Of a DNA stretch of 43,570 nucleotides, positions 30,001-36,000 are shown piece after piece; positions within the stretch are counted from its first letter, which is position 1, and each line of letters begins with the position of its first letter. Origin of the DNA: a virus (taxonomy: Duplodnaviria > Heunggongvirae > Uroviricota > Caudoviricetes); IMG/VR virus record IMGVR_UViG_2522572023_000011. One strand, written 5' to 3'. The position numbers were made by a program.

Positions 30001-33000
30001 TTCCTTTTAGTGATGAACCTTGTCTCACAGGAATCCAGCCCACAGAAAGGCACCGACAGCCAAACCGGTATCCTCAAGGGTCATCCTGAAAGGTTCTGTG
30101 TTGTGAGATGCGCGTGAGATGCGCAGAAATGACAAAGGCATCATTACGGTGCCTGAGTGTTAAACAACTGTTTTGACTTTATTCACTTACATTTTGCCAA
30201 TTTGCAGGATTTCGTGTTATCCATCCATGTAAGCAAACCTCATTTTTCAGCAAAATATTCTGCTTATCTGTCGATTCCCCAGCACGCCAGCGCGCTCTCC
30301 TGGTCACGACGGGATACCTGACCGTAACAGTTATTTGAGCGAATACGGCAGTCCCTGCCACCGTCCTTAATCCACCAGCGAATAGCTTCGCAGGCACCTT
30401 TTCGATCTCCTGCATTAATCCGTCTGTAAAACGTCGACGGGAAACACTTACCGGGGCCAATGTTGTACGGACAGAATGACGCAATCCCCGCTTTCTGGGG
30501 TTCGGTCAGTGGCACTCTGATGTTTTTCTCCACCCATGCCAGCGCCTTATCACGCTCAATGGCGTTAACCCGGTCGCATTTTTCCTTCGACAGCTTCATG
30601 CCAGGAATAACAGGCTTACCATCCACCCGGGTGGCTCCACGGCAGATGGTCCAGATACCCGCACCATCACGGTATGCTGTGGTGTGGTTACCTTCCTTTT
30701 CATCCAGAAACTGGTCGAGGATTTCAGGCGCAGACGCCCCTGCACCAATCAGCGCCAGAACGGCAGCCGACAGGCCGTATCTGATTTTTGCGTTCATGGA
30801 TATTTATCAGGGTTTATCGATTTCAAATCCCTGGATATGTTAAGTCTTCAGGCCAGCGGTGGAGTCTTCAGAGAACCAGTAATTATTCCCGGTAGTTTTC
30901 CTCTGTAGGTTATCAACACATCCTGCGCCTCTAAAATTACGGGGCGCTTTTCCGGCAACGGACCATCCCCTTCACATAACCCGGCAGCAACATCCATGAA
31001 AAACTGCTTCGCCTGCTTTTTCGCCTCAGCTTCGTAAAACTCCAGCGTGGCACCTTCAGTACGGTCAAGACTAATCGCCACATCTGGCAACAACAGTGAC
31101 GGATACCCACCAATTTCCAGTGCCACAGTAACAGTAATCTTATCCGGGTAATTATTTATCCCTTTAACAACCAGTTCGTATTTTTTCTTCATCACTTTAC
31201 TCTCCCCGCGCCGCCTTACGCCGGTCTTCTTTAATCTTGAAATACAGGTTCGTCAGATATGTCAGCAGCCCAAACAGCAGACTCCCCAGCACGCCTATCG
31301 CCACCCACTGGGACGGAGAGACTTTGTCCAGCAGCTGCAGTAACCAGTATCCCGTCCCCACCGCTGACGTGGTGTATGACACACCCGTTGTGATTTTTTC
31401 CATCTGGTACATACCCCGTCTCCCGTTATCCGGAAGCTGACAACAATAAAAAAGCCACCAGTTAACTACTGATGGCTCTGATAACTCATGCAGGCGTCTC
31501 AGACGACCCACTGACACTACCGGTGAGTTTAACGATACCTTCCATTTGACTGGCTCACTTTTTATGATGATGCCGGTGCATTTATCTCCAGCACCAGACT
31601 TTCTATCTCAACGCCATACGCTGCATTTTTTGTAACATCCGTCAGCGTCAGCGCATTCAGTCCCAGTGTCAGACTGTCTTTTATAACCTGGAATGCCGGG
31701 CCAGCCACTCCATTCAGTTTCGGAGTAACCGTGGCACTGCCGGCGGTGAACACCAGCTCCAGCGTCTGCCAGTCGTTACCGTAATCGCCGAACTCCCCCA
31801 GCTTCGTGTTTCCGGCTTTCCTGTGATGCATCAGATTCACTCTGCCGTCAGTGGTCTGAGTGAAGTACGACATCAGGAACGGATTACCGGTACCCGTCAT
31901 CGCCACACCATCAGGAACGGGAGCATCCGTATACAGATAAATCCCCAGCCCGAACTGATTGTTGGTCAGTGCGCCTGACAGGCGGAACTTACAGGTCAGT
32001 CTGCCGCCCTGTGTCAGCAGGGTAATTGCGTCATCCACCGGATGCGTCAGGGACCAGGTTTTATTGCTCTGCTTGGTGATCTTAAATACACCATCTGACA
32101 ACTGAATTCCGCCATCCTTAATGCTCCAGCCCTGCGCAGCAGCCTCTCCGGCTGCCGGCAGCAGGGAGATTGTGCGAACGGACGTATCTGCAGACGGACC
32201 CGATGGCGTGTTGCCGCCGGGCGAGGGTTTGATTTCCGGTGCCTTACCACTGATGAAGGCTGAGGTGCGCCCGGCTGCGTTCAGAATAGCGGTTGCCAGA
32301 CGATCCGGAATAATGCTCCTGCGCGCCCATGAACTGAAATGTGTCGGGCGGTTTGATGATACCTGGTTTCCATTCGTTCTCGATGCCGCACCGTAATATC
32401 CTGATGCCGGAATATCCGGATCTTCTGCCGGCGCGTTAGTGGCGGTATTGACGCCGTTACCGTCTGTCATGAAGGGCACAAAATAAACGCCCTCACTCTC
32501 CCTGTTTTTATACCCGCCGTACACGGTGTCGTACTGGGTAGCGTATGTATTTTTCCAGTAATACGTCGTGTCACCACAAATCCACGGCACATCTGCAGCA
32601 CTGCCACCATGGCACTGCGCGTTAAACACGGAGAGGTCAGCACGAAACTGTGTCAGCATGGCTGTAAACAGCGCAGGTTGCTGTGCGTGGGTGGCGGCGC
32701 TCATGTCAAACTCTCCCTGCATCCAGCACACCGCCAGCAACACATTTTTCGGGTTCTTCTGTAATGCAGCTTTAGTGCGCGCAATCAGGTCCTGATATAA
32801 CGGTTTACCCACACCCCAGCGTGCCGAATCCTGGCTGGCCCCCGTGTCCGCACTGAATGTCCCCTCCGCGCCCTGGGTGAATGCCGAACCACCACGACAG
32901 CATGGTACCAGCAGGATCCCCGCGTTATTCGGGATATACGGAAGCAGTTTTTTGGCAATATGTAAGCCCTGGCCGACACAGCCGTACTGCCCTTTGCTCA

Positions 33001-36000
33001 GGTCTGCCTTCGGATGATTCAGCGTACTCATATCCTGCACATCATGCAGACAGTGGTCAGCCGGAATAATATCGTTATATCTGCAGGCAGCCCCGCCCGG
33101 CGTCACTGTACTGCGGCGCGCCAGCTGTTTAATGCGCGGATCCGGAGCATCGTAAGAATCCGGTAACGGAAGCCCTTCACCGTAGGCCATGCCGTTGGAC
33201 TGTCCGGCAAGCACAACCACGTAGAACCAGTCCGGCTCAGATGAAGGGCCGACCTGTGGATCTCCTTCAATAGCCACCGCCTGCATCAGTGTGTACGGCG
33301 TAATGGCAACCGGTCCGCCGTATGGCTGCCAGCCCTCTTTCAGTTTGTGTGTCAGCTTTTCCGCAAGGTCTGACGGCGACGCCGCCCTGACAACATCATA
33401 ATGTTTAATCGACATCGAATTTCTCCCGTGTAGAGGAACAGAGTTAAAAAGCCGGAAGCGGAATCAAATCACAGGATGACCATCTGCCAGTGGCAGGTCA
33501 TAAAAAAAAGGCTGCGCAATGCGCAGCCAGAACTCACAAGGAAAATGATAAAAGGAATAACACTAGTGATGTACGCATGGCGCCTCCCGCTAAGTTCTGC
33601 AATGATCAAACAGAACTCGCTACGTGCCCTTAAAACTCGATCATTTAGCCCCTCCAAGGAGGATTCACCATGCGGTTGATTTTTTAATAAACAGTAAACA
33701 AAAAAATCAAGCATTATGCAGGCTGTTTCTTTTTATCACCGGCCACAGCAATACCACAATGCCGCAGACCAGAGCGCCATCAGTCAGTACCAACATTATC
33801 CTGCTGGTGAAATCCATCATCACCATCACTAAAAGCAGGATCACAACAGCAAGCAGACACAGTTTATAAAACAATGTTCAGAAAACGCATTCAGCATGCC
33901 TAAGGTTCTATTCCTACGAATAGCCAACTTGCAACTTAAAATATTATTTATGCAGCCAATTAAATTCTGGTCCTTACAATATCAACCTGAAGATTCTTAT
34001 CTTGTGCTGATTGATAAATCACAAACCTTTTACTACCTGCATTGAAAGAAGTAGACAAAACCAGACAATTATCATAACGAGCAAGAACATAATACCAACC
34101 ATCATTATAATTAATCATTTCATATTCTTTCTTAAACTGCGGTTTGTAATATCCTGTCAGAAATGAAAAAAGCCAGAAATATGCCACAAAAGCAATCATC
34201 ACAATCTCAAAAAAATGTTTTTTTATAAATGGCTTATCATAGAAGCATGATACCGATAAAAATCGCCCATAAGATCTTATCGAAATTGTAACCGCCAGCG
34301 CAATCGCTGCTGACAGTAGCAAAAGAGGTACCTGAATCTTCTGTCTCAATATAGAAAACTCAATAATTGCCGGCACAAACAATAATTCCACAGCAAAATA
34401 AAGGCGAAATACATTTAGCTCTTGCATAGAATGTTTTCTTTTCACTGCGAAAAAGAATACAACACCAATACCCCAACCGATAAGAAATATAGCAATGACG
34501 ATAACTGCAAAAAATAAACTTCTGGCAACATCATCAACACCTGCACCTACAATCCACCATGGGAAGCCGTAGTAAAAAGAAGTACCCCATCCATAGAAAT
34601 AAGCACTCCCCCATCCAAGGCATCCCATGTAGGCAATAAAAAGTGAAGAACTCCTGAGCAGCGCACCATCCTTCATAACCACCCCAATACAAGATGATAA
34701 CATTGGCTTACAACTCATAACAAAAGCAATTCAATGCCGTCAAGAGGTTACAGGCTAAAAAAACTCTATTACATTGCAGTCAGCATGTTTACTACACAAA
34801 TACAATTCAGAGCATAAAAACTACTCGGCGGCAGGTTATTGAGACTCATCAATGACATGTAAAAAACGCCCATTATTGGTGTCAAGTTTCCCCAAAGTTA
34901 TTCAAAAAGTCAATATTATGCCGTTAATATGTTGCCATCCGTGGCAATCATGGCGCTAACGTGTGATCGCATTCAAAATGTTGTCTGCGATTGACTCTTC
35001 CTTGTGGCATTGCACAACCAGAGCGTCATACAGCGGCTTAACAGTGCGTGACCAGGTGGGTTGGGTAAGGTTTGGGATTAGCATCGTCACAGCGCGATAT
35101 GCGGCGCTTGCTGGCATTCTTGAATAACCGACGCCTTTACATCTTCCGCACTCTTTCTCAGCAACTATCCCCCACTGCTCTGTTTTGGCTATATCAACCG
35201 CACGGCCTGTACCGTGGCAATCTCTGCATCTTGCGCCCGGCGTAGCGGCACTACGGCAATAATCCGCATAAGCGAATGTTGCGAGCACTTGCAGTACCTT
35301 TGCCTTAGTATTTCCTTCAAGCTTTGCCACGCCACGGTATTTCCCCGATACCTTGTGTGCAAATTGCATCAGATAGTTGATAGCCTTTTGTTTGTCGTTC
35401 TGGCTGAGTTCGTGCTTACCACAGAATACAGCCATTCCGAATCCGGCTTGTGATTGCGCCATCCCCATAGCAGCCATCACATCAGTACCGGAAAGAGAGT
35501 CAGAAGCCGTGGCCCGTGGTGAGTCGCTCATCATCGGGCTTTTTGGCGAATGAAATTTAGCTACGCTTTCGAGTCTCATGCGCCTTCTCCCTGTACCTGA
35601 ATCAATGTGAGGTTTCCGCAGAACACTGCGCCAGTATCGATATACATCTGGTTGGCAAATTTGAGTGGTTTCACTGCTGGCGTATGACCAAAGATGAACG
35701 TGTCCGCGCCTTTGATTTCTTTCACGATCCCGTCTTGTGAGTTGCTGATTCGTTCGCGGTTCCAGATTACCTGCTGATGATCAACTGGCTTTCCAAACTC
35801 GTATTTATCACAAGGATAATCGGCGTGGCAGATGACATATTTTTTTCCTTTACTCACCAGTTCGATGATTAACGGAAGTTCATCTGCTTTATGGGCAAGA
35901 GCTTTAGCCAGAATTTCTTTGTCGTAATCGAGATTAAAGAACCAGCCACCGCCATTAAGCAGCCAGTGATTGACGTTTCCACGCTCTGATAAGCCATCAA

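Follow-up and report, generated by a model that had tools for sequence, protein, structure and literature searches.

The 43,570-nt stretch of DNA analysed here (IMG/VR record IMGVR_UViG_2522572023_000011, hereafter the window) is a lambdoid prophage adjoining smpB-ssrA, and an open reading frame (ORF) on its minus strand, at 31562..33415, very probably encodes a functional prophage sialate O-acetylesterase of the NanS-p family, which is a standard late-region module of lambdoid phages. The domain architecture of this protein, its intact catalytic blocks, the position of its gene, the absence of stx, the mosaic boundaries of the region and purifying selection on the esterase are established here. 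NanS-p esterases enable enterohaemorrhagic and Shiga toxin-producing E. coli (EHEC and STEC) to use O-acetylated sialic acids from mucus. Active NanS-p esterases in stx-free phages have already been published (PMC10462455, PMC8065619), and multiple nanS-p copies per STEC genome, including copies in non-Stx prophages, are explicitly documented; NanS-p in a prophage without Shiga toxin genes is an ordinary and already known finding. What the analysis offers is a conceptual correction: rather than being tied to Shiga toxin, the esterase gene is conserved in the late region of many lambdoid phages, where stx is one among several alternative cargoes upstream.

Domain architecture and catalytic residues of the esterase

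The ORF starts with ATG, encodes 617 amino acids (aa) followed by a stop codon, contains no internal stop, and is preceded by a GGGAG Shine–Dalgarno sequence at 33423..33427 (minus strand), which can be read from the sequence 8 nt 5′ of the ATG. In Pfam searches three domains exceeded their gathering thresholds, namely PF08410 (DUF1737, aa 4-49, 56.7 bits against a cutoff of 24), PF03629 (SASA, aa 66-262, 47.7 against 24.8) and PF20350 (DUF6645, aa 467-577, 65.9 against 27). When the protein was compared with PDB by phmmer, aa 60-379 matched the crystal-structure sequence of E. coli NanS/YjhS (3PT5) with E = 3.4e-120; moreover, aa 421-613 matched 6YP6, a crystallised C-terminal domain named ‘NanS-p’, with E = 8.8e-30. 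The full-length protein also matched phrog_143, a PHROGs family of unknown function, at 1159.6 bits, an NCBIfam search with the protein returned no match, and near-identical annotated copies number in the hundreds.

From its GQSNG motif, the earlier note had taken the gene for a NanS-p-like sialate O-acetylesterase, and this is borne out by the three-domain architecture, the SGNH blocks and full-length homology. The motif comprises residues 71-75 (nt 33191..33205), and GQSN occurs only once across all six reading frames of the 43.5-kb window. Because this sole occurrence falls within the domain matching 3PT5, it is not a chance motif. As the reference for the SGNH blocks we used a structural survey of SGNH hydrolases that tabulates 3PT5, and functional data on NanS-p were taken from reviews. 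The survey gives 17-GQSNA-21, 120-RGGSAF-125, 178-MQGEFD-183 and R-x-SHFS-303 for 3PT5, and NanS is without the usual Asp of block V. All four blocks are carried by the window esterase (GQSNG71, RGGSAF174, MQGEFD232 and RPTHFS356), with block residues equal to those of NanS throughout, except in block V, where RPTH replaces RSSH in the context NRPTHFS (aa 355-361); the RPTH variant has also been reported in NanS-p of Stx2a prophage 86. Loss of the catalytic residues on alignment, which the earlier note had named as the outcome that would speak against its assignment, was checked, and Ser73, His359 and all four blocks are present. By the Nei-Gojobori method, the ratio of non-synonymous to synonymous substitution rates (dN/dS) of the esterase is 0.09 against phage 434 and 0.22 against phage YYZ-2008, and thus the allele lineage is under purifying selection.

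The relatives of the protein differ in how far each domain is conserved (Table 1). In phage 434 the esterase (UMO75335.1, CPT_434_71) is similar over its full length, has the same three domains and shares 97.3% DNA identity. The esterases of Stx1a phages (YYZ-2008 gp42; H-19B, 96.6% DNA identity) are likewise close, and differ in the N-terminal domain. In tblastn comparisons, the 933W L0105 and phi24B proteins matched the window esterase at 52.5% identity over 99% of the query (E = 0). These prototypes (933W L0105/z1466 and phi24B vb_24B_21, i.e. gp84) have in common with the window protein the three-domain architecture, the SGNH blocks and the location between Q/pR′ and the holin gene; in contrast, their genes follow stx2 in podoviruses, they are 28 residues longer than the window protein, and the Tyr42 anchor loop and the SISSP linker motif of phi24B are not conserved in the latter. 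NanS (b4309) has a homologous catalytic domain, in which blocks I-III are identical, the His of block V is kept and the block V Asp is absent in both proteins, whereas it is a single-domain protein of 326 aa that is encoded in the nanCMS operon, outside any prophage, without DUF1737 or a lectin-like C-terminal domain. Judged by sequence, the window allele belongs to a recognisable ‘434/Stx1a’ lineage of NanS-p, and domain-level diversity among NanS-p alleles has already been described. A match to the esterase was found in 2193 of 5426 complete E. coli genomes (40%), with a median of 2 places in each genome and a maximum of 15.

Table 1. Amino acid identity between the window esterase and its relatives, overall and by domain
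Relative	Overall	N-terminal	SASA	C-terminal
Phage 434	98%	98%	98%	99%
Stx1a phage YYZ-2008	~97%	81%	98%	98%
933W L0105 / phi24B vb_24B_21	52.5%	58%	71%	36%
K-12 NanS (single domain)	n/a	n/a	56%	n/a

Late-region context, mosaic structure and absence of stx

Along the direction of transcription, the window holds the genes of NinG, a Ser/Thr phosphatase and the antiterminator Q, followed by pR′/qut, the genes of a membrane protein and a DUF3927 protein, a hairpin, the esterase gene, another hairpin and the lysis genes (Table 2). A P21-type holin gene comes next after the esterase, so that the position upstream of the lysis genes given in the earlier note holds, and the order Q, pR′, cargo, esterase, holin, endolysin, spanin is common to the window, 434, YYZ-2008 and 933W. 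The late promoter pR′ was missed by a simple sigma-70 scan owing to its -10 hexamer GAAACT, and was located through homology to mEp234. A promoter scan from the upstream hairpin to the ATG of the esterase gave no sigma-70-type promoter, and the phage 434 record annotates terminators at positions equivalent to both hairpins that flank the esterase gene. As no promoter can be recognised for the gene itself, and as it is flanked by two terminator-like hairpins and lies between pR′/qut and the holin gene, its transcription most likely takes place within the Q late transcript. A further terminator downstream of pR′, homologous to an annotated terminator of 434, is degenerate.

The late region was also described in the earlier note as stx-negative, and searches for Stx proteins, stx-flanking DNA and tRNA genes agree with this. 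When Stx1A/B and Stx2A/B were compared with the window by tblastn, no Stx similarity was found (best E-value 0.53), blastn of the pR′-to-esterase DNA of 933W and YYZ-2008 against the window gave zero matches, and ARAGORN detected the ssrA transfer-messenger RNA only, the ileZ-argN-argO tRNA genes typical of Stx phages being absent from the window. On these three results, loss of stx by deletion was rejected as an explanation; whole-module replacement by recombination may still have taken place and would leave no scar. The word ‘retained’, by which the earlier note implied that stx had been lost, lacks support: the DNA between Q and the esterase runs colinear with phages 434 and 2B8 and contains no stx-flanking remnant. 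The locus is not a Stx-phage late region, and its stx slot is filled by 434-type membrane-protein genes.

The region is a mosaic of three parts, of which Q and pR′ form one, with ~96% DNA identity to HK97, mEp234 and similar phages down to ~34869, and cargo and esterase form another, colinear with phage 434 over 34837..31559 at 97.6% identity; the recombination junction between HK97-type and 434-type DNA lies at about 34837-34869. Q together with the interval to the esterase (33416..35579) is 98.1% identical to phage 2B8. The lysis cassette makes up the third part and shares 99.2% identity over 31406..28368 with the Stx1 phage YYZ-2008, whose homology around the esterase starts at 33428, right next to the Shine–Dalgarno sequence and 13 nt before the ATG, and stops 3 nt after the stop codon. 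Hence the esterase is a sharply bounded shared module, for which the stx1 operon, standing with a small ORF directly upstream of the esterase in Stx1a phages, and the 434-type genes are alternative upstream cargoes. Phage 434, a stx-free phage isolated from Paris sewage in the late 1950s, has the same upstream block (membrane protein, DUF3927 ‘TciB’, terminator) and a holin gene downstream. It differs by a Q82-type Q, a lysis cassette with a signal-arrest-release (SAR) endolysin and a lambda-type head, whereas the window has a lambda/HK97-type Q, a YYZ-2008-type lysis cassette and a capsid protein in which a protease is fused to the major capsid protein (MCP). The 434-type cargo block is present in 706 of the 5426 complete E. 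coli genomes, at a median of 6 places per genome, and at 5 places in the record of strain RM13516. The label ‘TciB’ comes solely from annotations of phage records, a literature search on the tci genes of phage 434 returned only irrelevant papers, and the phage 2B8 record has a ‘TciB-like’ feature within the same cargo stretch.

Of the assignment to a Stx-phage-associated esterase family, the NanS-p identity stands, but the family also occurs outside Stx phages, and the window esterase is closest to that of the stx-free phage 434. Overall, the evidence fits better with a common late gene of lambdoid phages that has another cargo ahead of it than with a Stx phage from which the toxin was lost. 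Since the esterase is conserved across many lambdoid phages, its presence says nothing on past carriage of stx.

Host prophage, proposed function and alternative explanations

The esterase gene is 100% identical in DNA to loci in E. coli O145:H28 RM12761 and RM13516, which are food and clinical isolates from the 2007 Belgian ice-cream outbreak, and on this chromosome seven places match the gene. As one of seven matching loci in an outbreak strain, the copy matters little beyond its correct annotation. The stx2a of the host strain sits on a different prophage with its own, distinct NanS-p. Over its full length, the window aligns with RM12761 3278575-3322144, apart from 15 clustered differences, and its cargo block (33416-34837) is 100% identical to RM13516, so that the window probably comes from the latter strain. 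The differences from RM12761 lie at 6882-6896, 7482-7511, 10983-10992, 21369-21399 and 34290 and cluster in tail and portal genes, pointing to gene conversion among paralogous prophages or to differences in assembly.

The prophage is defective. Its portal gene is annotated as frameshifted (window 20010-23080), an IS3 element at 4402-5615 splits a tail-fibre gene, and a second IS3 copy (43244-43570) truncates the replication gene O. This second copy borders immediately on the chromosomal gene ypjA, so that nothing is left of the immunity, N and int regions, and this loss of the early region resembles an IS-mediated deletion. The window agrees with a published description of O145:H28 prophages at ssrA, in which deletions and replacements were noted. 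Despite the disrupted genes, Q, pR′, the esterase, the holin and the endolysin are intact. Both IS3-family copies share the transposase WP_369872373.1.

We infer the substrate, the growth benefit, Q-dependent expression and release by lysis from characterised homologues. Esterase activity on 5-N-acetyl-9-O-acetylneuraminic acid (Neu5,9Ac2) was shown for NanS and for the 933W product z1466, the NanS-p alleles examined in EDL933 and five of O104:H4 gave active esterases, and alleles from phages without stx likewise support growth on Neu5,9Ac2. Moreover, by quantitative PCR, nanS-p of Stx2a phages was up by 1-2.4 logs after mitomycin C. By analogy, the SGNH/SASA domain of the window protein, with Ser73 and His359, would take the 9-O-acetyl group off Neu5,9Ac2 and O-acetylated mucin sialoglycans, yielding N-acetylneuraminic acid (Neu5Ac), which is catabolised by E. 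coli, and the C-terminal jelly-roll domain probably directs the enzyme to glycans. The N-terminal DUF1737 is a phage-specific addition, reported to be capsid-binding in phi24B. The esterase would most likely be made from the Q-antiterminated late transcript, and the protein would most likely be freed at cell lysis, as a folded DUF1737 is predicted to occupy the N-terminus where a signal peptide would sit.

Several points weigh against a functional mucin-directed esterase at this locus. The esterase activity of this allele is argued from homologues. Its C-terminal domain is just 36% identical to the crystallised one, and the sugar-binding aromatics proposed in phi24B (Y510, Y515, Y540 and F611) correspond to F488, Y493, F518 and L584 in the window protein, one of the four thus being Leu; glycan targeting may differ from the prototype. 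The -10 hexamer of pR′ carries two substitutions compared with TAAATT of mEp234 and lambda, and the prophage is without an early region, pR, cI and N being gone together with the immunity and int regions. Because pR, N and cI are lost and the hexamer is altered, expression of this prophage copy is uncertain, and it would depend on transcription reading through into Q, or on another prophage supplying a compatible Q. Finally, dN/dS records the history of the alleles, not the current state of this locus.

The loss of pR, N, cI and int, the weakened -10 hexamer of pR′ and the seven matching places on the same chromosome would all be expected if this copy were a silent relic, intact only through recent decay of the prophage and redundant beside six other nanS-p loci and possibly the chromosomal nanS. 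We regard such a relic as rather improbable, as the 1854-nt ORF is free of frameshifts and stops though three further genes of this prophage have been disrupted, no damage is seen in Q, pR′, holin or endolysin, purifying selection acts on the allele lineage, and the examined prophage nanS-p alleles of EDL933 and O104:H4 all yielded active esterases. There is very little probability, in our judgement, that sialic acid is not the physiological target and that the SGNH esterase acts naturally on another substrate, such as O-acetylated O-antigen or capsule, or an acetylated plant polysaccharide. The SASA/CE6 family does include putative acetylxylan esterases, the C-terminal targeting domain has diverged to 36% identity, and deacetylation of lipopolysaccharide has been put forward in the literature, as a proposal; however, the catalytic domain shares 56% identity with NanS and 71% with the NanS-p of 933W, both of which are active on Neu5,9Ac2, and its block residues are those of NanS but for the change of RSSH to RPTH in block V.

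A 2026 preprint on phi24B, using cryo-EM and proteomics, identified gp84, the NanS-p prototype, as an abundant virion protein, whose DUF1737 hexamers plug the central hexons of the T=9 capsid with Tyr42 as the anchor, and whose esterase and lectin domains are cleaved off. This abundance, docking and proteolytic processing would support a reading in which the window protein is mainly a virion component, with DUF1737 docking on hexons and the esterase and lectin domains serving the phage through mucus adherence or surface-glycan deacetylation, the metabolic benefit of the host being secondary. A late gene without its own promoter is consistent with such a role, and so is a backbone module that is kept across lambdoid phages with differing upstream cargoes, as expected of a gene with a phage function. 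We nevertheless consider it unlikely, though deserving of some weight, since recombinant NanS-p enzymes give a host growth phenotype and this prophage cannot make virions, its portal gene being frameshifted, its tail fibre split by IS3 and its replication and early region deleted. DUF1737 of the window is identical to phage 434 at 56 of 57 positions and to phi24B gp84/vb_24B_21 at 33 of 57. By sequence alone, Y41 lies in a loop 3 residues shorter than the Tyr42 loop of phi24B, Gly51 aligns with Gly54 of phi24B, and the SISSP processing motif is absent, being replaced by DP-QVGPSSEP.

The capsids themselves also differ. The capsid protein of the window is a 645-aa protease-MCP fusion (23292-25229, minus strand) common to long-tailed Stx1a and Stx2c phages, and a cognate capsid of phi24B type was not found in the window. 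Among the capsid matches listed, records of 933W/phi24B-type Stx2a podoviruses were not prominent, and the single Stx2a-named match listed comes from a composite record that assigns the matching part to another phage, PPompW_14040. Phage 434, with its near-identical DUF1737 allele, has a lambda-type gpE/gpD head, and neither this head nor the fusion capsid of the window is close to the T=9 podovirus head of phi24B. One DUF1737 allele thus accompanies capsids that are unrelated to each other, so that it must either fail to dock on them or dock promiscuously. The second option, in which DUF1737 would be a promiscuous adaptor able to dock on capsids and display a mucin-directed esterase and lectin on unrelated lambdoid heads, is a speculation to which we give scant credence; if it were true, NanS-p would chiefly be a portable module for arming virions, with stx and tci-like genes hitch-hiking as cargoes upstream. 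For this prophage the capsid question is moot, because it is unable to assemble virions.

Mapped features and neighbouring loci

The features of the esterase gene and of the surrounding late region are collected in Table 2, in which the Ant-type antirepressor gene lies between the lysozyme and Rz/Rz1 genes, as in 933W and YYZ-2008.

Table 2. Positions of the esterase gene, its domains and catalytic codons, and of late-region features in the window
Feature	Position	Strand	Basis
nanS-p coding sequence	31562..33415	-	RefSeq WP_025380554.1, existing annotation ‘SASA family carbohydrate esterase’
DUF1737 N-terminal domain, aa 1-57	33245..33415	-	Pfam PF08410, E = 2.1e-15
SASA/SGNH catalytic esterase domain, aa 60-380	32276..33238	-	phmmer vs PDB 3PT5
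C-terminal lectin-like jelly-roll domain (DUF6645), aa 421-617	31565..32155	-	PF20350, E = 4.5e-18
Ser73 codon, predicted nucleophile	33197..33199	-	aligned to NanS Ser19, block I GQSN
His359 codon, predicted general base	32339..32341	-	aligned to NanS His301, block V SHFS
Antiterminator Q, 207 aa, lambda/HK97 type	34956..35579	-	Pfam Antiterm PF03589, E = 4e-58
Late promoter pR′ and overlapping qut-like site (TTGACT, 17 nt, GAAACT)	34885..34913	-	aligned to annotated mEp234 pR′/qut
Multi-pass membrane protein, 247 aa	33960..34703	-	RefSeq annotation; no Pfam match
DUF3927 protein, 55 aa, ‘TciB’ in phage 434 record	33707..33874	-	Pfam DUF3927
Terminator-like hairpin, 8-bp stem (7 GC pairs) and T8, ~95 nt upstream of esterase start	33510..33528	-	consensus scan
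Terminator-like hairpin between esterase stop and holin gene	31451..31479	-	consensus scan
Lysis cassette: P21-type holin, DUF1327/YdfR protein, lysozyme, Ant, Rz with embedded Rz1	28803..31412	-	
P21-type holin	31197..31412	-	
Lysozyme	30264..30797	-	
Ant-type antirepressor gene	29424-29993	-	

Outside the late operon, a low-GC island at 37936-39707 (plus strand, 33-36% GC against ~55% in the flanks) carries two ORFs, 296 and 275 aa long, whose orientation is opposite to that of the nin region. The first of them has a Ser/Thr-rich N-terminus and a repeated ‘LTLNDFLDN’ motif, Pfam searches with both proteins gave no match, and the two ORFs could be a candidate moron, e.g. an effector or defence gene. 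The type III secretion system effector gene nleG7 lies at 2173-2823 (plus strand), in a low-GC stretch that separates ssrA/DinI from the tail-fibre genes, and in the same stretch there is an uncharacterised ORF of 291 aa at 3048-3923 (minus strand) with no Pfam match. A small HNH endonuclease gene (27806-28171) is located just upstream of the gene for the terminase small subunit.

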